64,000 nucleotides of DNA, taken from Acidobacteria bacterium RIFCSPLOWO2_02_FULL_65_29 (lineage in GTDB: Bacteria > Acidobacteriota > Vicinamibacteria > Vicinamibacterales > CAVVIG01). The stretch spans positions 25,840-89,839 of the forward strand of contig MEKT01000037.1 of the NCBI GenBank assembly GCA_001767435.1, in the 5' to 3' direction. The translations under genes and the position numbers were made by a program. Shown piece by piece: positions 8,265 to 26,244 of this stretch. The stretch's first letter is position 1. The number at the start of each line of letters is the position of its first letter. The notes under the pieces were generated by a model. That model was given only the letters and a program-made list of their open reading frames with translations, was not told the origin of the DNA and ran no database searches.

Positions 8265-9185
8265 CTAGTTCACCGTTGCGCAGATGGCGTAGACGACGAG
8301 GTTCACCGAGCCCAGCGAAAAGGTCAGGTTGTTTCGCACCTCGGCCGACCAACTCCCTTGGGTATCGGGGTAAGACGAGGTCACCGTCGGGCCTGAAGCC
8401 AGTTGCGTGGTCTGCTGTACACCGCCGCCGAGCACGCGCGTTCCGGCCGGACACACCGCGCGCGCGCTCAGCTGTGCACCAGCGGCCAGGTTGCCGCTGT
8501 TGGCGGATCCCGTAAGGATCTGGTAGCCGCTGACGCCCGGTGCCCCTTGCGGTCCTGTCGGTCCGGTCGAGCCAATTGGCCCTTGCGCCCCAGTCGGACC
8601 CGTCGGACCAACGGGCCCCTGCGGCCCGGTCGCGCCAACTGCGCCTGTCGCTCCCGTCGGTCCGGCAGGTCCTTGTGGGCCGGTCGGTCCTGCAGGTCCC
8701 TGCGGTCCTGCCGGCCCTGCAGGTCCCTCGGGCCCTATCGGTCCGGCAGGTCCCTCTGGCCCGGCCGGTCCCGCTAGCGTCGAGGATCCCTCGATGGCAT
8801 CATGCTCGTACACGACGACCGCAAACGACGCTGACTCGTTCCGGCCGTGGCCGCGCGAGACCGTCAGCAGATACGTTCCTTCGGGCTGACTCCCCGAAAG
8901 GAAGGCGACGACTTGAAACTTGTCGGCCGACAAGACCGTCAGCGGCTCGAGATCCAGAGTGACATGCGGCGGTGGCACTGGCGACGAGGCGCCCCTCGGA
9001 GGCGGCCAGGCAAAGTTCACGCCTTTGATCACGAGGCGGTTGTTGGCGGGATCGAATTGCGTGCTTGTGATCACCAACTGCGGCACCGACTGGGGCGCCG
9101 CAAGTGCGGACACCGTCCCAAAGACGACGAGCCCGCCCGCCGCCAAGAGGTTGACCAAGGTTGGTTTCAGCGTCTTCATAGTCAC
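8265..9185 (-). CDS. Secreted collagen-like triple-helix-repeat protein
   Basis: Signal-peptide-like N-terminus ([17 protein letters not shown]). About 27 uninterrupted Gly-X-Y triplets (aa 139-219, nt about 8529-8771). The C-terminal globular domain is bracketed by Cys (AVCPAG...YAICATVN). Confidence 0.85.
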
Positions 9186-10900: not shown

Positions 10901-12253
10901 TTATCGCCGTTGCCCCGGGTTTCCCTCGGGCACCACCGTCAGCTCCACGCGCCGATCCTTCGGCAGAAACTGCGCGGCGGCGGCGCGCACGTCGGTCGGC
11001 GACAACGAGCGGTACCGAGCCAGATCCTCGTTGAACCAGTCCGGGTTGCCGGTGTTGGTGTAGTACGCGTTCAGCTGATCGGCCTTGCCGCCGAAGCCGC
11101 CGACCCGTTCCATCCGACTGTAAAACGACGCCTCGTACTGGTTGAGCGCGCGTTCGACCTCACGGGTTGCCGGCGCCTCCGTCTGGAGCCGGGCGATCTC
11201 TTCGTCGATGATCGTCTGCAGCTCTCCGATCGTGTGTCCCGGTCGCGGCGTCGCCTCGATCACGAATGTGGACGCGAGCGCCATCGAGCCTTGAAACGCC
11301 TGGACACTCTGGGCGATCTGCAGGTCGTACACGAGCCGCTTGTAGAGTCGCGAGTTCTTGCCGCTGGTCAGGATCGACGAGACCACGTCGAGCGCGGCGT
11401 CGCCCGGCGCGTACAGCGCGGGCGTGAGCCACGCCAGGTAAAGACGCGGCAGCTGCACGCGGTCGGTGATCGTCTGTTTCTTCACGCTGGAGAGCGCCGC
11501 GCCCGGAATGGCCATCGGGTCGGGACGCGCGCCCGGCTTCACGTCGCCAAACCACTTTTCGACCAGCCTGCGCGCCGTCGCCGTGTCGATGTCGCCCGCC
11601 ACCGCGAGGCTTGCGTTGGATGGCGCGTAATACGTCTTGAAGAACGCCACCACGTCGTCGTAGCTCGCGGCCGTCAGATCCGGCATGTACCCGATGACGG
11701 GCCAGTGGTACGGATGGCCTTCGGGAAAGAGCATCTCGTTCAGCACGACGTCGGCCATGCCGTAGGGCTCGTTTTCGACGCGCTGGCGCCGCTCGTTTTT
11801 CACCACGTCGCGCTGGGCGTCCACGGTCTTGAGCGACATCGTGTCGAGCAGATAGCCCATCCGATCCGACTCGAGGAACAGCGCGAGCTCGAGCGCGTTC
11901 GAGGGGACGTTGATCCAGTAGTTGGTGCGGTCGTTGGACGTCGAGCCGTTGTTGTTGCCGCCGGCGCCTTCGAGCCACGAGTCGAACTCGCCCGGCGGCA
12001 CGTGGCCCGAGCCCATGAACATCAGGTGCTCGAACAGGTGCGCGAAGCCGGTGCGGCCCGTCTTTTCGCGCGCCGAGCCGACGTGGTACCAGACGTTCAC
12101 GCTCACGAGCGGCACGCTGTGGTCCTCGTGGAGAATCACCCGCAGGCCGTTCGGCAGCGTGAACTGCGTGTAGTCGAGTTGGATGGGCGCCGGCGTCTGA
12201 GCGGCGGCGGGCGCCGCCAGCGCCAAAGCGAGCATGCATGCGAAGCGTTTCAT
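10901..12253 (-). CDS. M16 (pitrilysin) family zinc peptidase
   Basis: Signal peptide; inverted zinc motif HLFEH (HxxEH) in GFAHLFEHLMFMGS. Confidence 0.9.
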   Translation of the reverse strand: MKRFACMLALALAAPAAAQTPAPIQLDYTQFTLPNGLRVILHEDHSVPLVSVNVWYHVGSAREKTGRTGFAHLFEHLMFMGSGHVPPGEFDSWLEGAGGNNNGSTSNDRTNYWINVPSNALELALFLESDRMGYLLDTMSLKTVDAQRDVVKNERRQRVENEPYGMADVVLNEMLFPEGHPYHWPVIGYMPDLTAASYDDVVAFFKTYYAPSNASLAVAGDIDTATARRLVEKWFGDVKPGARPDPMAIPGAALSSVKKQTITDRVQLPRLYLAWLTPALYAPGDAALDVVSSILTSGKNSRLYKRLVYDLQIAQSVQAFQGSMALASTFVIEATPRPGHTIGELQTIIDEEIARLQTEAPATREVERALNQYEASFYSRMERVGGFGGKADQLNAYYTNTGNPDWFNEDLARYRSLSPTDVRAAAAQFLPKDRRVELTVVPEGNPGQRR

Positions 12254-12342
12254 AGAGCCGATTCTACCTTGGGTGCAAGGGTGCGAGGGTGCCGGGGTAC
12301 GAGGGGGGCACGGGACTGTCGAATCTATGGTGAAATACGTTC

Positions 12343-12831
12343 ATGTCCGACACGCCCGTGCTGGTGGGCATCGTCATGGGAAGCCAATCCGATTGGGACA
12401 CGATGCGACAGGCCCACGAGATGCTGACGCGGTTCGGGGTAGCGCACGAGAACAGCGTGATGTCGGCCCACCGGTCGCCCGAGCTGACGGCGGGCTACGC
12501 CAAGACGGCGGCGAGCCGTGGCCTGGAAGTGCTCATCGCCGGTGCAGGCGGCGCGGCGCACCTGGCCGGCGTGGTCGCGGCGCACACGGTGCTGCCGGTG
12601 ATCGGTGTGCCGATGCCGAGCGGCTTGAACGGCCTGGACTCGCTGCTGTCCACGGTGCAGATGCCCATGGGCGTGCCGGTCGCCACCGTGGCCATCGGGC
12701 CGTCGGGCGCGGCGAACGCCGGCTTGCTTGCCGTCGCAATCCTCGCGACCTCGCGCCCCGCGTTGCGGGCCGCGTTGCAGGCGTATCGAGACGAGATGGC
12801 GGCCGAAGTCGGCCGCGCCACGATCTTGTAG
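12343..12831 (+). CDS. purE: 5-(carboxyamino)imidazole ribonucleotide mutase
   Basis: Diagnostic PurE sequence: [14 protein letters not shown] ... SAHRSPE ... [18 protein letters not shown] ... PVIGVP. Confidence 0.95.
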
Positions 12832-12957
12832 ACCCGTGAGGCTCGGGGCTCAAGTCCTCAAATCTTCGGGTCTCTTCGTGGCTCTCTTTTTCGTGCTTTC
12901 GTGTTTTCGTGGCTCTTCTTCGTGCCTTCGTGTCTTCGTGGCCTATAATCCGCCAAC

Positions 12958-14163
12958 ATGACGACCAACCGCTGGCACCCCGTGATCGGTGGCGTCCTCA
13001 TGAACCTGGCGCTCGGGTCACTCTACGCTTGGAGCGTCTTTGTCGCCCCGCTCGAAAAAGAGTTCGGGTGGACGCGTACACAAACCTCGCGCACCTTCAC
13101 GATAGCCGTCGTCTGCTTCGCGCTGACGTTCATCTTCGCCGGACGTCTTCAGGACAGGAGGGGGCCGCGCCTCTGTGCCCTCCTCGGCAGCATTCTCGTC
13201 AGCGCGGGATTCGTGCTCACGAGCTTCACGAGCTCGCTCACCGCGCTCTATGTCCTCTTCGGCGTGATCGTCGGCATCGGCAACGGGTTCGGCTACTCGG
13301 CGCCGACGCCGGTGGGATCCAAGTGGTTTCCCGACAAGCGAGGCCTCGTCGTCGGGCTGATGGTCGGCGGGTATGGCGGCGGCCAGGCCATCTTCGGCTC
13401 GCTGGCCAACTACTGGCTCATCCCGACGTTCGGCTGGCGCGCGACGTTTCAGATTCTCGCGGCCGTGTTCATGGTGATGACCCTCGCCGGCACGGCGCTT
13501 CTGAAGAATCCTCCGCAGGGTTATCGGCCGCCGAACTGGACGCCGCCCGGCGGCGCCGCCTCGAGCGGCGCGGATTTCACGACACGCGAGATGCTCGCGA
13601 CGCCGACGTTCTACGCCTTGTGGATCGCCTATTGTCTGGGCGCGACGGCCGGCCTGATGACGATCAGCCAGCTCGTGCCGTTTGCCAACAGCGTGGGACT
13701 CGGCGCCAACGTGGCCACGATCGCCCTTGTTGTGAGCGCGGTCGGGAACGCGGGCGGACGGATTCTTTCGGGCGCCATGTCCGACAGGTTCGGACGCGTC
13801 GTCACGCTCAGGATCATGGTGCTCGCGTCGGCCATCGCGATGCCCTCGCTGTTTCTCTGGCGCGAGCAGGCCGTGCTGTTCTGGGGGCTCGTCGTGCTCG
13901 TCTACTGGTGCTACGGGACGCAGCTCTCGGTGTTCGCGTCGACGACGGCGGATTTTTTCGGGACGAAGAATTTCGGGATGAACTACGGCGTGCTGTTCAC
14001 CGCCTGGGGGGCGGCCGGCATCCTGGGCCCGCAGATCGCCGGCCGCGTCTACGACACGTTCGGCGACTACCGGTACGCGTTCTTTGCCACAGCCGGCCTC
14101 GCGCTCGTCGCGCTCGCGGCCCTGATGGCCGCCCGCACCCCGACTCGCGCGGCTGCGGCGTAG
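12958..14163 (+). CDS. MFS transporter (oxalate/formate antiporter-like family)
   Basis: 401-aa ORF with about 12 hydrophobic segments and an OFA-like N-terminus (GGVLMNLALGSLYAWSVFVAPLEKEFGW). Confidence 0.85.
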   Translation: MTTNRWHPVIGGVLMNLALGSLYAWSVFVAPLEKEFGWTRTQTSRTFTIAVVCFALTFIFAGRLQDRRGPRLCALLGSILVSAGFVLTSFTSSLTALYVLFGVIVGIGNGFGYSAPTPVGSKWFPDKRGLVVGLMVGGYGGGQAIFGSLANYWLIPTFGWRATFQILAAVFMVMTLAGTALLKNPPQGYRPPNWTPPGGAASSGADFTTREMLATPTFYALWIAYCLGATAGLMTISQLVPFANSVGLGANVATIALVVSAVGNAGGRILSGAMSDRFGRVVTLRIMVLASAIAMPSLFLWREQAVLFWGLVVLVYWCYGTQLSVFASTTADFFGTKNFGMNYGVLFTAWGAAGILGPQIAGRVYDTFGDYRYAFFATAGLALVALAALMAARTPTRAAAA

Positions 14164-14908: not shown

Positions 14909-17161
14909 ATGAGCAGCCTCTGTCGTGATTCCACTCCCGACCTGGTGGGCCGCGCGGGCCAGGCCCGCGGACCGCTTTCGACGCACGCCGTCCACAAGGA
15001 CGTACACATTCTCGATCTCCTGGCGGTCATCTATCGGTACCGGCGCATGGCCTTCTCGGTCTTCATCTTGACCACGATCGCCCTGATGATCCAGGGCTAC
15101 TCGGGCGTCCGGTTGTACCAGGCTAAAGCGCAGCTCCTGATCGAAGACGAGCGCTCGACGGCGATGCCGGGCATTGCGACCGGCCAGTACTACGAGGATC
15201 CTGTCCCCTACTACAACACGCAGCACCGTATCTTGCGAAGCCGCGAGCTCGCGCGGCGGGTCGTGAGGCGCCTGCAGCTCGGAACACATCCCGAGTTCAA
15301 TGGCACCGCGACGCCTCCCGTCACACTCGTGACGGCGGTACGAGCGGCGGCCGCGCGGGCGCTGCGGGGCCTGACCTTGTTGTCCGCGGCTGTCGAAGAG
15401 GAAGCGCCCACACCCGACGAGACCCCCGCTGAAGCGGCGCTCGTGGGCAACTTCCTCTCCCGGGTCGTCGTCACACCGGTCCCTGACAGCAAGCTGGTGG
15501 ACGTGTTCTTCACGGCGGCGGACCCCGCGGTGACGGCTCTGGCGGCCACCACGCTCGCCGAGGAGTACGTCGCGCAGAATCTCGAACTGAAGCAGCAGAG
15601 CACGCAGAACATGCTCGAGTGGCTCGAGAACGAAGTGGCGGCCCAGCAGACGAAGGTCGAGCAGAGCGAGCGCGATCTCGCGGAATATCGCGAGATGGAA
15701 AACGCGATGTCGCTCGACGACAAGAACAACATCGTCGTGTCGCGTCTCAACGCACTCAACGAAGCGAGCATTAGGGCTCGCACGGTTCGGATCGAGAAGG
15801 AATCGGTCAACAACCAACTCAAGGCCATCCGCGACACAAGGTCGGTAGACGCCATTCCGGTCATCACACAGAATTTGCAGATTCAGGCGCTCAGGAATCA
15901 ACTCGGTGATTTACAGCGCCAGAAAGCCAATCTCACCGAGCGCTATGGCGACAAGCACCCCGAGATGGTGAAAGTCAACGCCCAGCTTGCCGACGGGCAG
16001 CGTCAGCTCGACGTGGGGACCGCGAAGGCGCTCGAGTCGGTCAGGAACGAATACGAACGTGCGCTGATCGAGGAGCGGACACTCGCCGCCCATCTGGAGG
16101 AAGCCAAGCGAGACGCGCAGGATCTGAGCCGTAAGAGCGTCGGCTACAACGTGTTGGAACGCGAGGCGAAAAGCCATCGCACGGTCTACGAGTCGCTCCT
16201 GCAGCGCACCAACGAGTTGCGCGTGTCGAGCAACAGCCGGGCGAACAACGTTCGGCTTGTCGAGCGGGGTGAAGTGCCGGGAAGTCCTGTGACCCCGTCG
16301 GGCCGGCGCACCTGGGGCCTGTCTGTCGTGGTGGGGTTGTTCGCCGCCATCGCCGTCGCCTATGGCCTCGATTACATGAACGACACCGTCAAGACGCCCG
16401 AGGACGTCACGCGGTTTCTGAAAATGACCTTCCTCGGTCTCGTGCCGTCGGTCCGCGGCGACAAGCATCCGCTGATGGCCTCGTGGGACACACCGAAGCA
16501 CTTCGGCGAAGCGTTCCGAAACCTGCGCACAGCGATCATCGCGCTGTATCCGGGCGACGGGCCGAAGACCATGGCCGTGACGAGCGCGCAGCCGCTCGAA
16601 GGCAAGACGACGACCGCGTGCAATATCGCGTTGGCGTTGGCCTACGGCGGAATGCGAGTCCTCTTGATCGACGCCGATCTACGCCGGCCCGGTCTACACC
16701 TGTCGCTCCGTCTGACAAACGAACGGGGGCTGTCGCACGTCCTGGGCGGGCGGGCTCGTCTACGCGACGTCATCCAGCGCACTGTCGATCTGAACCTATT
16801 TGCGATCACCGCCGGTCCCACACCGTCCGAGCCGTCGGAGCTGCTGGCTTCGGAGCGGATGAAGATGCTCCTGAGCAGTCTGGCGCAGGGGCCATTCGAC
16901 TGGATCATCATCGATACCCCTCCGGTGCTCGGGGTGAGTGACGCCGTCGTCCTTACACCCTTGGTTACCGGCGTCACGTTCGTGGTCGGTGCCGAAATGA
17001 CGCGACGGCAGGTGGCTGAGCACGCAATCGAAACCATTCTGTCGAGCCGGCCAAAGCTGCTTGGCGTCGTGCTCAACAAGGTCGACTTCGCTCGGAACAA
17101 GTACTACTATTCACGCTACTACGGCCGGCAGTACGAGAACCACTACGCTGAAGCGGTCTAG
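14909..17161 (+). CDS. Polysaccharide co-polymerase / bacterial tyrosine autokinase (Wzc/GumC-type)
   Basis: Wzz-like N-terminal TM segment, a long coiled-coil periplasmic region and a second TM segment. Walker A SAQPLEGKTTTACNIA; C-terminal Tyr cluster NKYYYSRYYGRQYENHY. Confidence 0.85.
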   Translation: MSSLCRDSTPDLVGRAGQARGPLSTHAVHKDVHILDLLAVIYRYRRMAFSVFILTTIALMIQGYSGVRLYQAKAQLLIEDERSTAMPGIATGQYYEDPVPYYNTQHRILRSRELARRVVRRLQLGTHPEFNGTATPPVTLVTAVRAAAARALRGLTLLSAAVEEEAPTPDETPAEAALVGNFLSRVVVTPVPDSKLVDVFFTAADPAVTALAATTLAEEYVAQNLELKQQSTQNMLEWLENEVAAQQTKVEQSERDLAEYREMENAMSLDDKNNIVVSRLNALNEASIRARTVRIEKESVNNQLKAIRDTRSVDAIPVITQNLQIQALRNQLGDLQRQKANLTERYGDKHPEMVKVNAQLADGQRQLDVGTAKALESVRNEYERALIEERTLAAHLEEAKRDAQDLSRKSVGYNVLEREAKSHRTVYESLLQRTNELRVSSNSRANNVRLVERGEVPGSPVTPSGRRTWGLSVVVGLFAAIAVAYGLDYMNDTVKTPEDVTRFLKMTFLGLVPSVRGDKHPLMASWDTPKHFGEAFRNLRTAIIALYPGDGPKTMAVTSAQPLEGKTTTACNIALALAYGGMRVLLIDADLRRPGLHLSLRLTNERGLSHVLGGRARLRDVIQRTVDLNLFAITAGPTPSEPSELLASERMKMLLSSLAQGPFDWIIIDTPPVLGVSDAVVLTPLVTGVTFVVGAEMTRRQVAEHAIETILSSRPKLLGVVLNKVDFARNKYYYSRYYGRQYENHYAEAV

Positions 17162-17190
17162 AAGATCGCCTCCCACCGCGTATCGGGGCC

Positions 17191-17354
17191 TAGCAGCCCG
17201 TGGTGAAAGTCTGGCTGCATTCGACGGGCGATGCATCCTCGCCGGCTGCGTTGCTCCTCGCTCACATACTCCCGGTATGCTCGGTCGTCGCGCCTTGCCG
17301 GCGAGGCGCCTCGCCCGTCTCGGTGCGACGCCAGACTTTCGCCACAGGCTGCTA
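17191..17354. mobile_element. MITE-like palindromic element, copy 1 (160 bp flanked by TA)
   Basis: Terminal inverted repeats gcagcccgtggtgaaagtctggc / gccagactttcgccacaggctgc, with internal arms also complementary. About 150 of 160 nt are identical to the copy at 22917-23076. Confidence 0.6.
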
Positions 17355-17404
17355 ATGGCAGACGTCTCGCCCGCCCGTGTCATGGCTCGCGACAGGAACG
17401 CTCG

Positions 17405-17433
17405 TTGACACGGCGCGCCGCCGGCTCTATATT
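17405..17433 (+). promoter_or_regulatory. Near-consensus sigma70-type promoter for the radical SAM operon
   Basis: TTGACA (17405-17410), exactly 17-nt spacer, TATATT (17428-17433). It lies about 110 nt upstream of the first operon ATG. Confidence 0.5.
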
Positions 17434-17544
17434 CAGCGCCCTGGTGATTTCTCGACACCCGTGGTCATCGTTGTGTTTCGGCGACACGGACGAGTGACAA
17501 GACGCGCGCAGTGACGCGGGACGAGATCCCGAGGTGGGCACAGG

Positions 17545-18522
17545 ATGAGCGTCCGATCCGTTCCGGGCGACGCGCTGGACACGATGCGCCGCACTGCGAT
17601 GACTCGCTCGCTGTTGGGACGGTTTCCATGGGCCGGCCAGTGGGAGCTGACATGCCGCTGCAACCTCAGATGTGTGATGTGCTACACGGACTGCTTCAAT
17701 ACGTCCGCACACGTCAGGCAGGAGCTCGCCACCGAGGACATCGTTCGTATTCTCGATGAACTGCAGGAAGCCGGATGCGTCGAGCTGACGTTCACCGGAG
17801 GCGAGCCGTTGTCGCGGCCCGATTTTCTGACAATTTACGGAGCCGCACACGAGCGCGGGTTTGTCCTCACCGTCTTCACCAACGGTACGTTGATTACGCC
17901 GGCCGTTGCCGACTGCTGGGCGCTCGCCCGGCCCAGGAGCGTCGAGATTTCTGTCCACGGTGTGTCGGCCCGGGTCTTCGACGGTGTGACTCGAGTTCCT
18001 GGATCGCTCGAGCGCTGCTTGGCGGGCATCGAGCTGGTGATGAGGCGGCGGATTCCAGTCGTTTTGAAAACGGTGGGGCTGATTTCGAATTGGCACGAGA
18101 TTCTGGCGATCAAACAGTTCGTCGACTCGCTCGGCGGCGCGACGTGGCGGTTCGGCCAGTACTTGCGTGACGACCTCGCTGGCACGAGTGCTCCGTTTCA
18201 GTTTCAGCTTCCCGAGGCGAGACTGCGGACGCTCGAGCAGCAGGACCGCGAGCTCTGGGAAGCCAAGTGCGGCGAGATCGCCTGGTCCGAGTCGATCGCG
18301 CACAAGACCTGCGGTGGCGGGCAGCTGACCTTTCACATCGACGCCTACGGCCAGCTTCAGCTGTGTTCGAACAATAGGCGAGGTGGCTACGACCTGCGCG
18401 CCGGCTCATTCCGTGCCGGCTTCGACGAGGTCCTGCCAACCTTGCCCTGTCAAGGCCGAACCAGGACTCATCCGGAGACCATGCCCCTGCACGTCACGCG
18501 GCCGCGGCGGACGGCGTCGTGA
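17545..18522 (+). CDS. Radical SAM protein A (C-terminal auxiliary-cluster region reduced or disrupted)
   Basis: CX3CX2C in ELTCRCNLRCVMCY and a GGEPL SAM-binding motif. Paralog of the ORFs at 20201 and 22218. Only CGGG...C...C remains in the C-terminal region. Confidence 0.85.
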   Translation: MSVRSVPGDALDTMRRTAMTRSLLGRFPWAGQWELTCRCNLRCVMCYTDCFNTSAHVRQELATEDIVRILDELQEAGCVELTFTGGEPLSRPDFLTIYGAAHERGFVLTVFTNGTLITPAVADCWALARPRSVEISVHGVSARVFDGVTRVPGSLERCLAGIELVMRRRIPVVLKTVGLISNWHEILAIKQFVDSLGGATWRFGQYLRDDLAGTSAPFQFQLPEARLRTLEQQDRELWEAKCGEIAWSESIAHKTCGGGQLTFHIDAYGQLQLCSNNRRGGYDLRAGSFRAGFDEVLPTLPCQGRTRTHPETMPLHVTRPRRTAS

Positions 18523-18537
18523 ACTCGAGGATTCTGA

Positions 18538-20220
18538 GTGCCAACATCGGACGAGTCTCAAAGCAGGATAGCTCGCGTAGGTGTTGAACCCGTGCAGGAT
18601 ATCCGAACGGTCGAAAACCACGATGCGGCGTATGACATCTGGAAGGCCGCTGGCGCTCGAAACCGAGTTCTGGTTCATGTCGACGGGCACGTCGACTTCG
18701 AGTGGATGAACGATCACGTTGCCGATGAGCTTCTGGCCGCGCGCAGCTCAGTGGAGATCCAGCGGCTGCTTGCCGAGACGAGCGCCTGGCATTTCGACGA
18801 ACGGCCGTTGCGCGAACGGGTCACCCCCGCGAATTTCATCTATCCGGCGATAAAGGAGGGTCTCGTTCGCGAGTTCATCTGGATCATGCCCGATGCCTTC
18901 TGGGCAAGCCCCGCAGCACGTCGCGTGATTCGCGATGGTTTGGAGCAGACACTGCGCCGGGGCTCGCCAGAGGCCGGCCCCCTACGCGTGTCCAACGGCG
19001 GCATCCGTTTTCGTCTGCTGGGGTGTCCTGTGACCGCGTGTACGCTCGCCACTTTGCCTCGCATCACCGAGCCGGTGCTGCTCGATATCGACGTCGATTA
19101 TCTCCTCACCACGAATCCGGCGGGGCCGGCCCCGTACTTCCAGCGCGAGCCGGCCGAGCCGTGGCTGTGGCCCAGCGCGTTCTTCCGGCGCCTCAGGTCG
19201 ACGCGTCTGAAGACGGACCTGCTGACCATCGCGTACTCCGTGGACGACGGTTTCACGCTGCTTCGCTACAAGTACTTTGGCGATCTGCTGCGACGCGCGC
19301 TCGGCGAGGCGTCCGAACGCGTGAGCGACGCCCCGGTTTCCGGGAGCGCTGCCGAGGCGTTCGATCACGTGAGCCGAAGCCTCTCCGCTCACGACATGCT
19401 CTCGACCGGTCGCTGGTGGCGAGAAATGGTGCGTCGAGATCCTTCCTATCGCTCGGTCTACGCGATCCCTGGATGGCGGGAAGAATGCGCTGGACGCTGG
19501 GACGCCGCGCTCGACATCTACCAGCGAATGATTGAGATCGATCCGGAATGGCACGTGCCGCATCTGGGAAGGGGTCGCGCGCTCTGGCAATTTGGCCGAT
19601 ATGCGGAGGCGGAAACGGCTTTCGAAGCGGCAGCCTCGCGGAGCTCCCGAGCGACGTCAGCCACGTACTGGCTGGGTCTTTGCCGATTTCGCCGCCAAGA
19701 TCTCGAAGGGGCCTCACGCGCCTGGACCGACGCGGTTCGAGCCGACCCACGCGATGGCTCGAGCCTGCATGGTTTGGCCTGCGTGGAGGCTCAACAAGGG
19801 CAGGCGAGAGCTGGCGGCGCCCGGATTGCTCGAGGAGAACGCCGGCAGTGGAACCGGAGACGAAAGGGACTATCTCACATGACGGACCTCCACGATCCGC
19901 TCGGCACGCGCTATGAGCATGAGCCAAGCATCGTGACCCGCCGCGTCGCCGGCGAGGTCATCCTCGTGCCGACGCGCCAGATGAGCGGAGACGCTGCCCT
20001 TTTCACACTGGACGAAGTGGCAGCTTTTCTCTGGGAACGGTTGGACGGGCAGAGGACCGGCAAGGACCTCGTCGCGGCTCTGGAGTCGTCATATGCCGCT
20101 GAACCGGAACAGGCCGCCGCTGATGTGCGCACCTTTCTGGAGCAGCTCGAATCAATTGACGCAGTGCGGCGCGTGTCGGAGTCCCGCCGGGCGACGAATC
20201 ATGGCCCGGCCTCTCGCTGA
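18538..20220 (+). CDS. Multidomain ORF: UPF0489/arginase-deacetylase-like N-domain, TPR repeats and a C-terminal PqqD-type (RRE) domain
   Basis: Uninterrupted 560-codon frame. N-terminus VENHDAAYDIW...LVHVDGHVDF resembles the UPF0489 signature. TPR-like helices span aa about 290-420. The last 113 aa (from ATG 19879, preceded by aaaggga) are PqqD-like (VAGEVILVP...LFTLDEVAAFLWERLDGQRTGKDLVAAL). Confidence 0.7.
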   Translation: MPTSDESQSRIARVGVEPVQDIRTVENHDAAYDIWKAAGARNRVLVHVDGHVDFEWMNDHVADELLAARSSVEIQRLLAETSAWHFDERPLRERVTPANFIYPAIKEGLVREFIWIMPDAFWASPAARRVIRDGLEQTLRRGSPEAGPLRVSNGGIRFRLLGCPVTACTLATLPRITEPVLLDIDVDYLLTTNPAGPAPYFQREPAEPWLWPSAFFRRLRSTRLKTDLLTIAYSVDDGFTLLRYKYFGDLLRRALGEASERVSDAPVSGSAAEAFDHVSRSLSAHDMLSTGRWWREMVRRDPSYRSVYAIPGWREECAGRWDAALDIYQRMIEIDPEWHVPHLGRGRALWQFGRYAEAETAFEAAASRSSRATSATYWLGLCRFRRQDLEGASRAWTDAVRADPRDGSSLHGLACVEAQQGQARAGGARIARGERRQWNRRRKGLSHMTDLHDPLGTRYEHEPSIVTRRVAGEVILVPTRQMSGDAALFTLDEVAAFLWERLDGQRTGKDLVAALESSYAAEPEQAAADVRTFLEQLESIDAVRRVSESRRATNHGPASR

Positions 20221-21298
20221 AGAGCAGTACGGTCAGTTCAGCGCCCGCGTCTGCAGTCGCACCATCGCCGACGCGCAACCGACTCGTGTCCAGTTCGAGC
20301 TGACCTACAGGTGCAATATCCATTGCGTGCACTGCTACACCGACCCCTTCAACACCCTGGACGCTGTCGGGCGTGAGCTCGATCTGCACGAGATCTCGAG
20401 GATCTTTGACGAGCTGGCTGATGCGGGTGTGCTGTGGATGACGATGACAGGCGGTGAAGCCCTCGTGCATCCTCAGTTCCGGCGGATCTATCAGGAAGCC
20501 AAACGCCGGGGATTCATCATCAGCCTCTATTCGAACGGGACGACGGTTTCCGAGAGCCTCGCGGACTTCCTTGCCGCGGACCCGCCGTTCACGATTGACG
20601 TGAGCTGCCACGCGGCCACGAGCGGAACCTTCGACAGGATCACCCAAGTCTCCGGTTCCTTCAATCTGTTTCAGCAGGGCGTTGGTCGGCTGATGGCGAG
20701 AGCGTTGCCGCTCACGATCAAGACGAAGGCGATGACGACAAACCGGCACGAGCTCTCGCGGATCAAGACGCTGGTGGAAGACCTCGGGCTCGACTTCCAT
20801 GTCTTCACGACGATTCATCCACGTCTGAACGGGGACCTGACGTCCACCCACTACCGGCTGACACCGCGAGAGATCATCGATCTCGAGGTGGGAGAGACAG
20901 CCGATGGCTGTGAAGGTGTGTGCGGCTCGCGCGATCGGGCCGGTGCCAACACCCTGACAGAGCCTCCCTCCGATGATCGGTTGTTTCGCTGCGGGTGCGG
21001 GACCAACACCTGCACGATCAATCCCTACGGGGTTCTGCGAGCCTGCACCCATACCACCTGGCCTTCGATCGACCTGAACACCACGCCATTTGCGCAGGCG
21101 TTCGCGCGCCTTGTCAACCAAGTGCGGAATGCCCGATACACAGGCGCGTCGCCGTGCGCGGCGTGTACGGCCCATGTCTTCTGCCACAAGAACCCGGCAA
21201 TGGCCGTGCACGAAGCGGGTGCGATGGAGGCGCCGGTGACCCATTACTGTGAAGTGGCCTTTGGCAAAGCCGCGCGGCTTGGGCAGACGTGCAAATGA
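20201..21298 (+). CDS. Radical SAM/SPASM protein B
   Basis: ELTYRCNIHCVHCY cluster motif. Cys-rich tail FRCGCGTNTC...C...CAACTAHVFC...C. The start at 20201 (MARPLAEE) overlaps the previous ORF by 20 nt. Confidence 0.85.
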   Translation: MARPLAEEQYGQFSARVCSRTIADAQPTRVQFELTYRCNIHCVHCYTDPFNTLDAVGRELDLHEISRIFDELADAGVLWMTMTGGEALVHPQFRRIYQEAKRRGFIISLYSNGTTVSESLADFLAADPPFTIDVSCHAATSGTFDRITQVSGSFNLFQQGVGRLMARALPLTIKTKAMTTNRHELSRIKTLVEDLGLDFHVFTTIHPRLNGDLTSTHYRLTPREIIDLEVGETADGCEGVCGSRDRAGANTLTEPPSDDRLFRCGCGTNTCTINPYGVLRACTHTTWPSIDLNTTPFAQAFARLVNQVRNARYTGASPCAACTAHVFCHKNPAMAVHEAGAMEAPVTHYCEVAFGKAARLGQTCK

Positions 21299-22221
21299 CG
21301 GTTCGATTCCAGTTCGGACCGGCGACGATCGATCTTGTCGCTGACCGCTGGCCCGAGGATGTGACGGCCGGGCACTACGGGCCGTTCGTGTCCAACCCGG
21401 AGGGCCCCGCCGACCTCACCATCCACGTCCATCGCGATCGAGCGCCCAGTTGCGGCCGGGTTTCGCCCGCCGCGCAACTACCGACCAACTGGGCCCTGTA
21501 CCGGTGCCGATCGGGCTATCGCCTGGAAATCCTGGAGCAAGTCACATTCGCACCACGGCAGATAGTCTTGCTGGATCGATCATTGAGCCGCGCTGACGTC
21601 TACGCGGCGTCGGGAGCTGGGCTCCCAGGGTATCCGCCGGGGAGCTGGTGTCTGGCTCTGGTGATGAATCCGTTCGTGCAGTGGTGGCTCACGGCCTTCC
21701 TCGCGCTTCGAGCGCGGGGCGTGTTGCTGCATGCTTCCGCGGCGGCCTTCAATGGGGCGGGCCTTGCGTTTGCCGGACCTTCCGGCGCGGGCAAGACGAC
21801 GACCGTTCGGAGGTGTCGAGATCGCGCCGGGGCGGTCGTGCTCAACGACGAGCGGATCATCGTGTGGCGAACCGCGGAGGGGGTCAAGGTGGCTGGCACG
21901 CCCTGGCACGGGGAACTCCCCGAGGTTGCCGCCTTGGTCGTACCTCTGGTCGGGCTCTTCATGCTGACCAAGAACGCAACGAACCGCTATCTCCCGTGGC
22001 CGCCGCCACGTATGGTGGCGGGCATCATGTCGGAAGCGTTTCTCCCTATCTGGAGCGTCGAGGCCATGGCGGGCCTGCTCGAAGCGGCGGAGCACATCGT
22101 ACGCGCGGTTCCGAGCGGCGAGCTGCAGCTCGCGAACGACCGCGACGTCGCGGACTACCTGCGGCGCTTCGTGGATGTCGGGCCCAGCACGCCGTGGGCG
22201 GTCGCCGTGGGGTCGCCATGA
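21295..22221 (+). CDS. HPr-kinase-like P-loop protein (HprK-related, ScmC-like)
   Basis: LLHASAAAFNGAGLAFAGPSGAGKTTT matches the HprK C-terminal-domain P-loop context. ATGA overlap with the upstream stop; GTG alternative at 21289. Confidence 0.75.
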   Translation: MTVRFQFGPATIDLVADRWPEDVTAGHYGPFVSNPEGPADLTIHVHRDRAPSCGRVSPAAQLPTNWALYRCRSGYRLEILEQVTFAPRQIVLLDRSLSRADVYAASGAGLPGYPPGSWCLALVMNPFVQWWLTAFLALRARGVLLHASAAAFNGAGLAFAGPSGAGKTTTVRRCRDRAGAVVLNDERIIVWRTAEGVKVAGTPWHGELPEVAALVVPLVGLFMLTKNATNRYLPWPPPRMVAGIMSEAFLPIWSVEAMAGLLEAAEHIVRAVPSGELQLANDRDVADYLRRFVDVGPSTPWAVAVGSP

Positions 22222-23468
22222 ACGAGATATCGTTCGAGCGCCTGGTCTTTGGCGTGGACGACGAAGCCCGGGCCGCCCCGCATCTCGTGCAGGCGATGGT
22301 GGAGCTCACCTATGGCTGCAACCTGCGGTGTGTTCACTGCTACAACCCGACGCACGACGCGCAAGACGAGCTGCGGACCGAGGCTGTCCTGCGGATCCTA
22401 GACGAGCTGGCCCACGAGGGATGCCTCCGCGTCGGCTTTACCGGCGGCGAGCTCTTCGTTCGTCGCGATACCTTCGACATCCTGCGTCACGCAAAACGGC
22501 TCGGGATGATCCTCACGATTCTCACCAATGCGACGATGATCACATCGAAGATCGCGGATCGTCTTGCCGCGCTCGATCCCCACCAGGTCGACGTCTCGGT
22601 CTACGGCGCAAGCGCCGAGACGTATGAAACCGTCACGAGAGTCCCCGGCTCCTTCCTCCGATTTTTGAGCGGTCTGGATCGGCTCGTCGAGCGGCATGTT
22701 CGCGTGTTGCTCAAGCTCGTCCTGCTCACCGTGAACGTCCACGAGCGCCGCCAGATGCAAGAGCTTGCGATGAGCCGAAATCTTCGTTACCAGATGGCGA
22801 CCGACGTGCACCCGAGGGTTGACGGATCGATCGAGCCGCTGGCCTATCGTCTCTCGCCAGCGCAAGCGTTCGAAGTCTGGCGCGAGTCTGCCGAGCCGAT
22901 CCCGTCAGCGAGCCTAACAGCCCGTGGTGAAAGTCTGGCTGCATTCGACGGGCGATGCATCCCCGCCGGCGGCGTTGCTCCTCCCTCAAATACTCCCGGT
23001 ATTCTCGGTCGTCGCGCCTTGCCGGCGGGGCGCCTCGCCCGTCTCGGTGCGACGCCAGACGTTCACCACGGGCTGCTAACGTCTGGCGGTTCCCAGATGC
23101 GGGGGGCTTCCCGTGCGAAAGCAGAGGAACCCTCCTGTGGATTCGATGGGCGGGTGTTTCACTGTCGTTGCGGAAAATCGAATGTGGCCGTGACGCCCCA
23201 CGGCAGGCTCAATCTGTGCCTCTCGGTTTATCACCCACGATACGACCTCACACGCGGCAGCCTGAAAGACGGTTGGAAGCAGCTCGTGGATCTGGTTGCG
23301 TCGGCCAGACCAGGACCGGCCTACGAGTGCAATCGGTGCTCCCTCACCGAGCATTGCTCGCGCGGCGTGGGCGATAGCTGGCTCGCGACCGGCCAATTCG
23401 ACAATCCATGTATGCCGCACTACCGGGAGCTGGCCGAGCGCAAGGCAAGTTTCCTCAGGGAGCGGTAA
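22218..23468 (+). CDS. Radical SAM/SPASM protein C carrying an in-frame MITE-derived 54-codon insert
   Basis: ELTYGCNLRCVHCY cluster motif. SPASM-like tail HCRCG...C...ECNRCSLTEHC...C. ATGA overlap with the upstream stop. The insert lies at 22915-23078, in the linker between the core and the SPASM region. Confidence 0.85.
   Translation: MNEISFERLVFGVDDEARAAPHLVQAMVELTYGCNLRCVHCYNPTHDAQDELRTEAVLRILDELAHEGCLRVGFTGGELFVRRDTFDILRHAKRLGMILTILTNATMITSKIADRLAALDPHQVDVSVYGASAETYETVTRVPGSFLRFLSGLDRLVERHVRVLLKLVLLTVNVHERRQMQELAMSRNLRYQMATDVHPRVDGSIEPLAYRLSPAQAFEVWRESAEPIPSASLTARGESLAAFDGRCIPAGGVAPPSNTPGILGRRALPAGRLARLGATPDVHHGLLTSGGSQMRGASRAKAEEPSCGFDGRVFHCRCGKSNVAVTPHGRLNLCLSVYHPRYDLTRGSLKDGWKQLVDLVASARPGPAYECNRCSLTEHCSRGVGDSWLATGQFDNPCMPHYRELAERKASFLRER
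22915..23078. mobile_element. MITE-like palindromic element, copy 2, inside a coding region
   Basis: Same 160-bp element as 17193-17352, flanked by TA. Element plus one TA is 162 bp (54 codons), with no stop in the host frame. Confidence 0.6.
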
Positions 23469-23482
23469 CCGGAGGTCTTCTC

Positions 23483-23701
23483 ATGGAGCACGAACGCGCG
23501 CGGAAAAAGTACCACCCACCGACGATCACTCGGGTCGTCTTGCGGCCCGAGCAGGCCATTCTGAGCCAGTGCAGCACGATGGGGATGTCCGCTCGAGACC
23601 TCGGCAGCCCGAGCGTGATGACGTGTGCGTTCGGACCCGACAATTGCCGCGCGTGGGCCGGCACCGGCAGGTTTGTCGACAGCGGGTATCGCCCCTCGTA
23701 A
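23483..23701 (+). CDS. Candidate RiPP precursor peptide (72 aa)
   Basis: GGAGG at 23471-23475, 7 nt before the ATG. Peptide: MEHERARKKYHPPTITRVVLRPEQAILSQCSTMGMSARDLGSPSVMTCAFGPDNCRAWAGTGRFVDSGYRPS. It has a YxxPxI leader-like motif, 3 Cys and a C-terminal Ser. Confidence 0.55.
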   Translation: MEHERARKKYHPPTITRVVLRPEQAILSQCSTMGMSARDLGSPSVMTCAFGPDNCRAWAGTGRFVDSGYRPS

Positions 23702-23703
23702 GG

Positions 23704-24180
23704 ATGAGAGGGCTCCTGACGCGGCCGCGGCATCCAAGCGGGATTCCTGAACGGACGGGACGAATCTCCGACTATCTCGAGGTGGCGGATCTTCTCGTTT
23801 GCCAGCGAAGATTGCGCTTCCGAGTCTCGTCGGACAGCATGGTGCCCAGTCTGCGACCGGGGGATCTCGTGCGGCTCCGCCCTGTGTTCGACCGGCTCGC
23901 CGCGGGCGATCTCGTCGCGATGCGCCTGGGGGACCGCATCATCTGTCATCGCGTCACGCGCTGCTACCCTGACGAAGACGGCCGACAGTGGGTGGTGACG
24001 AAAGGCGATCGGAGCGCTGCCGAGGATTTCCCCAGTTCCGCAGCCCTGATCGTCGGTCGGGTCACCGAGGTGATTCGACCGCCGGTCTGGAATCGCCTCA
24101 TGTGGCGCACGCGCGGCTTCCTGTGCGCGCTGTTGGCGCGCCGCCGCAAAGCGTCTGAACGTCAGAGGTCACCGTCTTGA
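23704..24180 (+). CDS. S26B-type (SipW/Sec11-like) serine peptidase, candidate leader peptidase
   Basis: Motif series SDSMVPSLRPGD ... GDLVAM ... CHRV ... TKGDRSAAED parallels the archaeal/SipW-type signal peptidase boxes. It starts 2 nt after the precursor stop. Confidence 0.65.
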   Translation: MRGLLTRPRHPSGIPERTGRISDYLEVADLLVCQRRLRFRVSSDSMVPSLRPGDLVRLRPVFDRLAAGDLVAMRLGDRIICHRVTRCYPDEDGRQWVVTKGDRSAAEDFPSSAALIVGRVTEVIRPPVWNRLMWRTRGFLCALLARRRKASERQRSPS

Positions 24181-25052
24181 AATCGCCGAGCGAGCCTCGC
24201 CCAGCTCAGGCCGCTGCCGAACCCACCGAATGGGCGCGACCCTGGCGCCTTGAAGCCACAAGGCGACTGCTACTTGCCGCGCGGGGGTTGGAGTTTTTCA
24301 GCCTCGCGATCCCGCGTCCGGACGATTTGATCGGATCGGCGCACCGGTTCTACGCCAAGCCGGAAGTGGTCACCGGCATGGCGGAGAGTGCCGATGCCGA
24401 CCTGTATCCGCACGAGAAGGCCGCTCTGGAACGATTCGCTCCTCACCCGACCGATGCGCTCGTGCTGGGTTGCGGCGCGGGGCGGGAAGCGATCGCGTTG
24501 GTGAAGCGGGGCTGGAGCGTCGTGGGCCTGGACGCCGGGCCCGCGCTGATTGAGGCCGCGAAGCTGAACGCCGCTCGAGCCGACGTCCGCATCGACTTCC
24601 GCTGCCACGACATCACGCGGCCATTTCATGTCGATGTCGATCGCGTGTTCGACCTCGTCTGCATCTTCGGCGTCGTTTACAGCCTGATCCCGAGTCGTCC
24701 GCTGCGGGTGGCCACTCTCCGCACCTGTCGCACGCATCTGGCGCCTGATGGCGTGTGCGTCTTGGACTTTGCGGCCCGCGAGAACCCGACGAGCCCGCGC
24801 GAGCTTTGGGCCCACCGCTGGCGCCAGCGACTTGCTTGGGCGACCCGCGGAAATCGAGACTGTCAGATCGGTGACCACTGGTTCGCTGGCGTCCTCTGCA
24901 TGCACGCATTTGCCCATCCCGACGAAGTGTCGAAAGAGGCCGAGGAGGCCGGTTTCCATACTGAGATGTTGCGGGACCCTGGCTACCCGCCGGTCGCGGT
25001 GTTGACACACCGCCCTCACCCTCACGAAATGTCGTCTCGAGACGCCGACTGA
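24177..25052 (+). CDS. Class I SAM-dependent methyltransferase
   Basis: Motif I VLGCGAGREA and post-I VVGLD. TTGA overlap with the upstream stop. An internal ATG (MAESAD) is an alternative start. Confidence 0.8.
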   Translation: MKSPSEPRPAQAAAEPTEWARPWRLEATRRLLLAARGLEFFSLAIPRPDDLIGSAHRFYAKPEVVTGMAESADADLYPHEKAALERFAPHPTDALVLGCGAGREAIALVKRGWSVVGLDAGPALIEAAKLNAARADVRIDFRCHDITRPFHVDVDRVFDLVCIFGVVYSLIPSRPLRVATLRTCRTHLAPDGVCVLDFAARENPTSPRELWAHRWRQRLAWATRGNRDCQIGDHWFAGVLCMHAFAHPDEVSKEAEEAGFHTEMLRDPGYPPVAVLTHRPHPHEMSSRDAD

Positions 25053-25092: not shown

Positions 25093-26244
25093 TCAGAAGA
25101 TGTCGAGAGGCGAGCGACGGCGAAGCCACTTCCCCACGCCGCGGACGATTCGACGGGCGTACAGCAGTGGGAGAAGCACGGCGATTGAGGTGTTGTTGGA
25201 ACGCAGGACGTATTCCGCGGAAGGAAAAAGATGCTGGTAAACGAGTCGAAGTCTGTCTGGCCACCTGGGAAGGGCCCGCAGGTCGGAGATGAACACATCC
25301 GCCTTGCGCCGGCCATTCTTCAAGAATGCCGCCGATCGCTCGACCTCGCCGAATGGTGTCTTCGCGATGAGATCGCTGAGCACAAACGAAGGGACCGGCG
25401 CGCCGCATGAGCGCTGGGCAGCCCGCAGCCCGCTCGCGCAGATCGCCCGGACGCGCCTCTGGCCGGCCAACTCCATGAAACGGTTCCACTGCTGTTCGGA
25501 CATGCCGGCGGCGAGTAGATGGATGTCGTACAGCCAGATCAGCCGGCGCGTGTTGTTGTGGTGGGCAACCCGATGAACGCATGCGAGCAACAGGGCGTGG
25601 ACCGCCGACAGGCCCCGCGCGCCCGCGCCGAGATAGGCGACCTGCACGGCCTCACAGGCGAGGTCGTCAAAGCTCGCCAGCTGTGCAAACGTTTGCGGCT
25701 CGGCGAGGCGCCAATGAATGTCGAACTCATACTTGAGGCCAAGGCGAGCGTCGCGCTGATAGAGAGTCTGATAGGTGACGAGTTCGCCGCTGACGCGTAC
25801 GCCAGGGCAGTAACCGAGATCGTTCATGAGACGACCGGCCGGCTGGCGATCGGATTCTCTGATCAGCAGATCGACGTCCGAGCAGGGCCTCAGGCAGGGA
25901 CTGGGATAATGAGTGTACGCCAGGTGCGTACCCTTGAGCAGCAGCGGATGGACTCCGCCCTCGAACAGCGCGCGTAGCACCCGCCTCAGTTCGACAAAGC
26001 GAAGCGACTCGGAGAACACCTGTGCGCGCGTCTCGGCCGCGAGGATCGTCCGCACGCGGTCGGGCCATTCTTGGCCCTCGCCGCGGTGGTAAAGCAGATG
26101 AGCCAGCAATGACTGGATGCCGTGCGCCCTGGCAGCCTGGATGAAACGCTCCTCCATGTCGCCGTTCCAGCTGGCGGGCCACCGTACAGGGTTGCCGCGC
26201 AGCGCTGCGGCGAGCAGAGCCTCGATCACGATGGGCCTTGTCAA
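25093..26244 (-). CDS. Uncharacterised nucleotidyltransferase family protein (PF14907-like)
   Basis: 383-aa ORF with LLLKGTHLAYTHYPSPCLRPCSDVDLLI and a later DIHW motif, typical of that family (from memory). Convergent with the operon. Confidence 0.65.
   Translation of the reverse strand: MTRPIVIEALLAAALRGNPVRWPASWNGDMEERFIQAARAHGIQSLLAHLLYHRGEGQEWPDRVRTILAAETRAQVFSESLRFVELRRVLRALFEGGVHPLLLKGTHLAYTHYPSPCLRPCSDVDLLIRESDRQPAGRLMNDLGYCPGVRVSGELVTYQTLYQRDARLGLKYEFDIHWRLAEPQTFAQLASFDDLACEAVQVAYLGAGARGLSAVHALLLACVHRVAHHNNTRRLIWLYDIHLLAAGMSEQQWNRFMELAGQRRVRAICASGLRAAQRSCGAPVPSFVLSDLIAKTPFGEVERSAAFLKNGRRKADVFISDLRALPRWPDRLRLVYQHLFPSAEYVLRSNNTSIAVLLPLLYARRIVRGVGKWLRRRSPLDIF

Follow-up and report, generated by a model that had tools for sequence, protein, structure and literature searches.

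A single-frame arginase-like, TPR, and PqqD-type protein within a RiPP-type operon of an Acidobacteria bacterium

The window analyzed here, a 64,000-nt stretch of contig MEKT01000037.1 from Acidobacteria bacterium RIFCSPLOWO2_02_FULL_65_29, carries at 18538..20220 on the plus strand an open reading frame (ORF) of 560 codons plus a stop, which joins an arginase-like domain, a tetratricopeptide repeat (TPR) region, and a PqqD-type recognition element (RRE) for ribosomally synthesized and posttranslationally modified peptides (RiPPs). The frame starts with GTG, has GAGGA 7 nt 5' of this start, and translates without an internal stop; its homologs begin at the aligned position. A sequence-only reading of the stretch had described one 560-codon frame with three modules and no stop codon between the TPR and PqqD parts, and the ORF list, the translation, and the Pfam matches bear this out. 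We found 101 homologs of the 560-residue product (best nonself E value 2.8e-161), and an identical fused junction was present in at least six independent assemblies, allelic variants included (P0139, P0141, P0143, and P0144). Because of these homologs and the junction shared between independent assemblies, the ORF is a genuine coding sequence and not a chance open frame in DNA of 66% GC. The AlphaFold2 (AF2) model of the full-length protein was confident, with a predicted TM-score (pTM) of 0.78.

If the fused frame were an artefact, either an indel would hide a stop or the true TPR gene would end in the +1 frame, at the TGA of 19880-19882 that overlaps the ATG at 19879 (ATGA). The +1 frame does have an open stretch ending in ATGA (19532 to 19882), it was picked by gene callers on four short contigs, and its translation shows a weak likeness to a tail motif conserved in the TPR proteins. 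We traced this tail with a hidden Markov model (HMM; 151 positions) built from the final 150 residues of TPR proteins that are not fused, which scored 69.5 bits in frame 1, to approximately nt 19810, but 3.9 bits in the +1 frame, the weak match overlapping that in frame 1. The four contigs align gaplessly with the window at 99.9-100% identity and merely begin inside the ORF. A sequencing indel, which the sequence-only reading had named as a way in which it could fail, is contradicted by the junction being unchanged across the independent assemblies and their allelic variants. We consider an artefact of either kind very improbable, and the +1-frame ORF of 19532-19882 was rejected as the real end of the TPR gene on the tail scores and the gapless identity of the contigs with that call. 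A frame plot of GC content at third codon positions (GC3) was likewise discarded as evidence of a frameshift: it is ambiguous in the TPR region, and the high GC3 of the +1 frame is explained by codon position 1 of a frame 1 rich in Ala, Arg, Gly, and Glu. Some public records list the PqqD part as a gene of its own, of 113 residues, because gene callers use the +1 frame on short contigs beginning inside the ORF.

The N-terminal module (residues 20-262, 18595..19323, plus strand as are the other features of the ORF) has a predicted arginase/ureohydrolase fold and is distantly related to the peptide arginases of PF12640. Members of this family, alternatively named UPF0489, include OspR, BipC/PbsE, FlmR, and OhkR and convert Arg to ornithine in RiPP precursors (PMC10028609, PMC12703449, PMC12707348), which makes outdated the earlier statement that the fold has no reported role in RiPP maturation. 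They share the motifs EEH(N/H)EAF, DxHxD, and LDIDLDYFSC (PMC12703449, PMC10028609, PMC12707348), and the window protein has counterparts of all three, with the six Mn ligands of the family. The first, E26-N-H28-D-A-A-Y (18613..18633), corresponds to EEH(N/H)EAF (PMC12703449) and contains H28 as a predicted ligand. The second, D49-G-H51-V-D53 (DxHxD; 18682..18696), provides three predicted ligands, is invariant in 57 homologs, and aligns with HVDEHSD of OspR; the third, D183-I-D185-V-D187 (LDIDxDY; 19084..19098), is also invariant, aligns with LDIDIDY of OspR, and provides the predicted ligands D185 and D187. Residues H28, D49, H51, D53, D185, and D187 align with the OspR ligands H12, D39, H41, D43, D165, and D167 (PMC10028609), and they are invariant or nearly so both among the 57 and among 150 homologs. 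The signature had been written as VENHDAAYDIW(x15)LVHVDGHVDF; its UPF0489-like metal motif is intact, but the spacer from DIW to LVHVDGHVDF is 9 residues and not 15.

The relationship to OspR was found from both sequence profiles and predicted structure. A profile built from 17 N-terminal domains had a single match in the whole PDB, OspR (8BRP), with an E value of 9e-17 and nearly the full domain covered. The family profile was needed, as a single-sequence phmmer search found 8BRP only at an E value of 0.028 and a profile retaining the TPR region was swamped by TPR matches. The AF2 model of the domain had a predicted local distance difference test (pLDDT) score of 92.4, and the first three Foldseek matches to it were chains of 8BRP (E value 3e-5, TM-score 0.43-0.46), followed by plant arginases and agmatinases. 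The profile and Foldseek thus agree on an alpha/beta/alpha ureohydrolase fold closest to that of OspR and, with the AF2 model, uphold the UPF0489/arginase fold proposed in the sequence-only reading. Several homologs carry precomputed PF12640 matches, and NCBI gives two of them the name "UPF0489 family protein." In total, the domain family comprises 677 clusters at 50% identity (E value up to 1e-3), most members being 450-560 residues long, the size of the domain plus the TPR region, and its current annotation is limited to "TPR repeat protein" or "UPF0489 family protein."

Several observations weigh against reading this domain as a peptide arginase. The Pfam model UPF0489 (PF12640) matches residues 23-119 with positions 2-83 of its 167, but stays below its cut-off of 27 bits whether the whole protein (21.3 bits) or the N-terminal domain (24.0 bits) is scanned. 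The only enzymatic hint from NCBIfam, NF052474 ("peptide arginase, FlmR/OhkR family"), scores 28.8 bits against a cut-off of 350. The Foldseek TM-scores are modest (0.35-0.46), and identity to OspR in those alignments is 12-15%. Before the ligand His, where OspR has Glu11, proposed to contact or position the guanidinium group, the window protein has Asn27 and most homologs have Asp, and therefore the substrate chemistry may differ. The domain could then be a hydrolase of another guanidino, ureido, or amide group, acting on a modified residue or a nonpeptide substrate, or a noncatalytic scaffold that recruits the radical S-adenosylmethionine (SAM) enzymes encoded nearby. The ureohydrolase fold does serve several specificities, agmatinase and guanidinobutyrase being among the Foldseek matches, and the operon adjoins genes of polysaccharide export. 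Strong conservation of the six metal ligands is, however, contrary to a dead scaffold; the nearest relative by structure as well as by sequence is a peptide arginase; and the accompanying RRE, precursor peptide, and radical SAM maturases point to a peptide substrate. We hold these alternatives to be unlikely, though they keep some weight. Since the profile and Foldseek searches lead to 8BRP and the six ligands are kept, yet the curated cut-offs are missed, the domain is, as judged from alignment and modeling, a divergent relative of the peptide arginases with a predicted intact binuclear metal site.

The rest of the ORF is made up of the TPR region, a linker, and the PqqD module. The TPR region (19339..19806) has about ten helices and is shortened in comparison with unfused homologs. 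Three Pfam TPR models exceed their cut-offs within residues 318-405 (TPR_2, 42.7 vs. 27; TPR_16, 39.5 vs. 32.7; TPR_19, 35.3 vs. 25), and the AF2 model places ten helices within residues 271-448 in the array of helical pairs typical of TPRs, those assigned to the TPR region itself spanning residues 271-419. The linker (residues 424-447, 19807..19878) consists of 24 residues, is rich in Arg, and has no counterpart in the homologs by the tail HMM and sequence comparisons; its residues are not conserved among the fusions, and the model confidence drops to a pLDDT below 50 at residues 444-451. In the PqqD-type RRE module (19879..20220), PF05402 matches residues 474-539 (19957-20154) with 60 bits against a cut-off of 23.4, so the earlier identification of both TPR and PqqD modules stands on Pfam scores above threshold. 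The AF2 model gives the PqqD fold with high confidence, four short strands forming a beta-sheet and three helices within residues 458-539. For comparison we used loci around homologs at 40-58% identity (L001, L002, and L004-L007). The window PqqD part is 75-78% identical to the stand-alone PqqD2 proteins of L001 and L002, but only 28% identical to PqqD1, and the L002 protein aligns with it from residue 1. To judge from these alignments, the PqqD part is an ortholog of the stand-alone PqqD2 gene.

An arrangement from which the fusion could be derived is seen in the two nearest relatives, L001 and L007: an arginase-like/TPR protein of 507 residues and, after it, two PqqD proteins of 89 and 101 residues, each encoded by its own gene. 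Two parts present in these relatives are missing from the window, namely the C-terminal ~85 residues of the TPR protein and the first PqqD gene (PqqD1). The tail HMM matches frame 1 at positions 1-67 of 151 only, the conserved tail (...VHWLLAWAAWRxGQRRLxRREL.LW...) is absent from the window protein, and tblastn found no remnant of PqqD1 in the window. The pattern indicates that, once the TPR tail and PqqD1 were lost, the TPR frame ran on into the second PqqD gene, the linker being the resulting junction. Among 238 family proteins studied by stop-to-stop analysis and a local PqqD HMM, 8 (~3%) were fused in frame to a PqqD domain, and these fusions involve two different PqqD paralogs and distant lineages; at most other loci, the PqqD gene lies directly adjacent to the arginase-like/TPR gene. 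The sequence-only reading had looked to orthologs to decide between a fused and a split arrangement, and the outcome is mixed: most, including the closest, have a stop between the parts, but a minority are fused and the fusion is real. On this comparison, the window fusion is a lineage-specific rearrangement of a normally split pair.

A different fusion was found in L002, where the arginase-like/TPR protein (444-2102) is joined to PqqD1 with no internal Met and PqqD2 remains a separate downstream gene. The first radical SAM gene has also moved downstream in this locus, and the operon has thus been rearranged between close relatives. The window fusion may have arisen either from a split ancestor of the L001 kind or by way of a PqqD1 fusion such as that of L002. 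A protein of 681 residues from a JGI metagenome contig of 94,663 nt (P0021) was called as one ORF in which the C-terminal two-thirds of the upstream radical SAM enzyme is joined to the arginase-like domain, a short remnant of the TPR region, and PqqD; such a protein, if real, would have four fused modules. The persistent adjacency of the two genes and their recurrent fusion are good evidence, at the level of gene order, that the arginase-like/TPR protein and PqqD function together. In five of the six fused proteins compared the conserved tail is wholly lost, P0016 retaining one more helix pair, which suggests that the tail mediates an interaction that the tether replaces.

Within the fused frame, the start site of the former PqqD gene has survived. 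The in-frame ATG at 19879..19881, from which a 113-residue PqqD protein would be translated, encodes Met448 and lies within ~3 residues of the start Met in 26 aligned stand-alone PqqD orthologs, which marks it as the ancestral start codon of PqqD2; a Shine-Dalgarno-like (SD) aaaggga is found 9 nt 5' of it (19863..19869), with a duplex energy of -5.0 kcal/mol, similar to those at the stand-alone PqqD2 starts of L001, L002, and L007. The earlier proposal that this ATG could yield a stand-alone PqqD is therefore plausible. A Met is retained 16-18 residues N-terminal to the motif VTRRVAGE in each of the six PqqD2-type fusions, and the four that were examined at the DNA level all have a purine-rich SD 6-9 nt 5' of the Met codon (GGAGG, AGGAG, AAAGGA, and AAAGGGA). 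Their SD:anti-SD energies range from -5.0 to -9.5 kcal/mol, and the fractions of in-frame background positions scoring as well are 0.25, 0.04, 0.13, and 0.04 (P value about 0.013, Fisher combination). Taken across the fusions, the evidence for an internal start is suggestive. Two points tell against it: the window SD is unexceptional on its own, as 25% of in-frame positions of the ORF score as well, and the conserved internal Met may be a relic of recent independent fusions. Since the ORF still contains the SD and ATG that belonged to the PqqD gene, free PqqD is probably also made by internal initiation, while the 560-residue protein must be made, because no stop codon intervenes.

The surviving start also bears on whether the tether matters. 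The fusion could be a neutral accident, in which the frame stayed open by chance after deletion of the TPR tail and PqqD1, the free 113-residue protein from ATG 19879 serves as the functional RRE, as it does in relatives, and the tether adds nothing. A search with the 113-residue segment returned 37 homologs at 44-78% identity, all of them stand-alone proteins of 89-119 residues, and covalent tethering is thus clearly not required. The split state of the closest relatives, the retention of the ancestral SD and ATG, the absence of homologs to an Arg-rich linker modeled with low confidence, and the restriction of the fused form to ~3% of the family are all in keeping with an accident. Set against this are the recurrence of fusions in distant lineages and to two PqqD paralogs, the complete loss of the tail in five of six fused proteins, which suggests that the link takes over the function of the tail, the full-length protein that must result from a frame lacking a stop, and the confident model of that protein. 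We judge neutrality rather unlikely and prefer the reading in which arginase-like domain, TPR array, and RRE act together.

The neighboring genes are packed closely into an operon in which starts and stops overlap. A radical SAM enzyme (17545..18522, plus strand as are the following genes unless noted), recognized by family matches and as a conserved neighbor, precedes the fused gene. The second radical SAM enzyme, of the SPASM type (20201..21298; Pfam and NCBIfam matches), has a start overlapping the end of the fused ORF by 20 nt and is followed by a ScmC-family, HprK-like P-loop protein (21289..22221), identified by NCBIfam and by PF27840 on the equivalent gene in contigs 99.97-100% identical. 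Family matches further identified a third radical SAM/SPASM enzyme (22218..23468) in ATGA overlap with the ScmC gene, an S24/S26-type peptidase that is a candidate leader peptidase (23704..24180), and a SAM-dependent methyltransferase (24177..25052). On the minus strand, an NTP_transf_5 nucleotidyltransferase-family protein (25093..26244; Pfam) recurs as a neighbor in related loci. The gene set is common to L001, L002, and L004-L007, and of 80 genome loci, more than half have at minimum PqqD and radical SAM genes beside the arginase-like/TPR gene. These loci span at least six phyla: Omnitrophota, Nitrospirota, Desulfobacterota-type metagenome-assembled genomes, Acidobacteriota, Elusimicrobiota, and Planctomycetota. 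By its gene content and conservation, the fused gene belongs to a conserved RiPP-type operon.

Some further features of the region deserve mention. The operon repeatedly adjoins genes for polysaccharide chain length and export (a Wzc-like tyrosine autokinase and Poly_export/GNVR) together with NTP_transf_5, in the window at 14909-17161, in L001 at 18297-20558, and in L006 at 11495-13038, which hints at a tie between exopolysaccharide loci and this peptide system. Two copies of a 177-nt direct repeat share 92% identity; one is at 17188-17364, in the intergenic region 5' of the first radical SAM gene, and the other at 22912-23088, in frame within the third. The latter copy falls in a stretch, flanked by the radical SAM core and the SPASM cysteines, that is shorter in the L001 ortholog, and a 75% identical copy is present in L001 at 2941-3126 (minus strand). 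An Rfam scan of 17000-23600 for the repeat found nothing relevant, and the repeat may be a small mobile or repetitive element tolerated within a coding region. At 8265-9185 on the minus strand, the window contains an ORF of 306 residues with a signal-peptide-like N terminus and a long collagen-like Gly-X-Y run.

Between the third radical SAM gene and the peptidase gene lies a small ORF of 72 residues (23483..23701, plus strand), which we take as the candidate precursor peptide. It has a leader motif, ...ITRVVLRPEQAILSQC, and a core containing Cys and Arg, and its counterparts in L001, L002, and L007, small ORFs occupying the same place, are 64-68% identical to it. An iterated HMM search collected 57 related small ORFs across the loci, which share the leader KPY..P.I.RV.LNxEQAVL..C, a core rich in Cys, Ser, Thr, and Arg and often containing Cys-Arg, and a C-terminal Ser. 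For the 72-residue ORF, scans with Pfam and NCBIfam gave no match to any family.

Together, the gene is most readily understood as a peptide-arginase-family hydrolase with a binuclear metal site, about five TPR pairs, and a PqqD-type RRE, encoded as one gene in a RiPP-type operon and carrying out RRE-guided deguanidination of Arg in the precursor, with free PqqD probably made as well; we favor this reading, with reserve. In the mechanism that we envisage, the RRE would bind the leader of the 72-residue precursor, the groove of the TPR array would hold the peptide or a partner enzyme, and the arginase-like domain would hydrolyze the guanidino group of a core Arg to give ornithine and urea. The recurrent Cys-Arg motif would be the best candidate site for this. 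The three radical SAM/SPASM enzymes may install probable cross-links at three conserved Cys, and the methyltransferase and S24 peptidase would complete the product. Deguanidination of precursor Arg is thus the likely function, the activity being predicted from sequence. Arg in the core is, on the other hand, expected by chance, and Cys-Arg is absent from some members of the precursor family, which makes the proposed site less secure. Comparable combinations of enzymes have been described: in biphenomycin, a PF12640 arginase acts alongside radical SAM enzymes (PMC12707348), and in enteropeptin, a Cys-Arg thiomorpholine made by a radical SAM enzyme is combined with arginase action and N-methylation (PMC12703449).

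The closest known systems are the peptide arginases themselves (OspR of landornamide, PDB 8BRP; BipC/PbsE; FlmR/OhkR), which have the same fold, the same three motifs, and all six Mn ligands and are likewise encoded in RiPP operons with a precursor peptide and radical SAM maturases. The window family differs from OspR by the low identity (12-15%), the missed curated cut-offs, and the Asn or Asp instead of Glu before the ligand His. Whereas OspR is a homodimer of ~300 residues (PMC10028609, PMC12703449), the window protein adds a C-terminal TPR array and an RRE, and its precursor family and operon type differ from those of the peptide arginases. Two papers on these enzymes state their substrate recognition to be unresolved and do not mention an RRE (PMC10028609, PMC12703449).

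The SynChlorMet cassette (ScmC, the PqqD-like ScmD, and the radical SAM/SPASM enzymes ScmE and ScmF; TIGR04248-04251, PF27840) brings together the same kinds of genes as the window operon, and ScmD is the best NCBIfam match of the PqqD part. The equivalog cut-offs were nevertheless missed throughout (ScmD, 34.4 vs. 100; ScmC, 20.5 vs. 125; ScmE, 75-87 and ScmF, 66-69 vs. 400), and the window operon contains genes beyond those of that cassette, for the arginase-like/TPR protein, a precursor of a defined family, an S24 peptidase, and a methyltransferase. A literature search on SynChlorMet, ScmC, ScmD, and ScmE returned only unrelated papers. The enteropeptin pathway (radical SAM enzyme KgrC, arginase KgrD, and an Fe-S methyltransferase) has the same combination of enzymes and could, by analogy, serve as a working model for the Cys-Arg motif of the window precursor. 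Its arginase belongs to PF00491, however, and is not PF12640-like, its precursor differs, and its hosts are Firmicutes. A bolder form of the favored reading would unite the arginase-like/TPR protein, its PqqD partner or partners, three SPASM radical SAM enzymes, ScmC, and KPY..RV.LNxEQAVL..C precursors into an uncharacterized RiPP class widespread in uncultured phyla. In it, an RRE/TPR-guided arginase would turn a Cys-adjacent Arg into ornithine, as in enteropeptin but on a large precursor, and the fused gene would be a two-product locus giving the full-length enzyme and, from the conserved internal start, free RRE; we regard this as distinctly doubtful.

Fusions of an RRE to an enzyme occur in other RiPP classes, among them the lasso-peptide B proteins and RRE-bearing radical SAM maturases, and split and fused forms coexist among orthologs. 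The B proteins of proteobacterial lasso peptides are fusions of an RRE with a protease. In this respect, the sequence-only reading was too broad in calling the tethering of a hydrolase to an RRE architecturally new. In comparison with these other fusions, the RRE of the window protein is C-terminal, follows a TPR array, is joined to an arginase-fold domain, and keeps its own translation start. The new part is the joining of an arginase-family domain to TPR and RRE modules, which is not described in the peptide-arginase literature that we consulted for comparison (PMC10028609, PMC12703449, PMC12707348).

The window fusion itself is a minor evolutionary variant and as such of moderate interest only. 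The wider value lies in the family pattern, in which an arginase fold comes with TPRs and a PqqD gene that is mostly beside it and sometimes fused to it, a form of gene-fusion evidence for leader-guided arginase action. As peptide arginases are already tools of peptide engineering, a leader-addressable version could be useful. The operon type is spread over Omnitrophota, Nitrospirota, Acidobacteriota, Elusimicrobiota, and other phyla and is without a characterized product, and the family offers a testable set of enzyme, RRE, and precursor that bears on how peptide arginases recognize their substrates.

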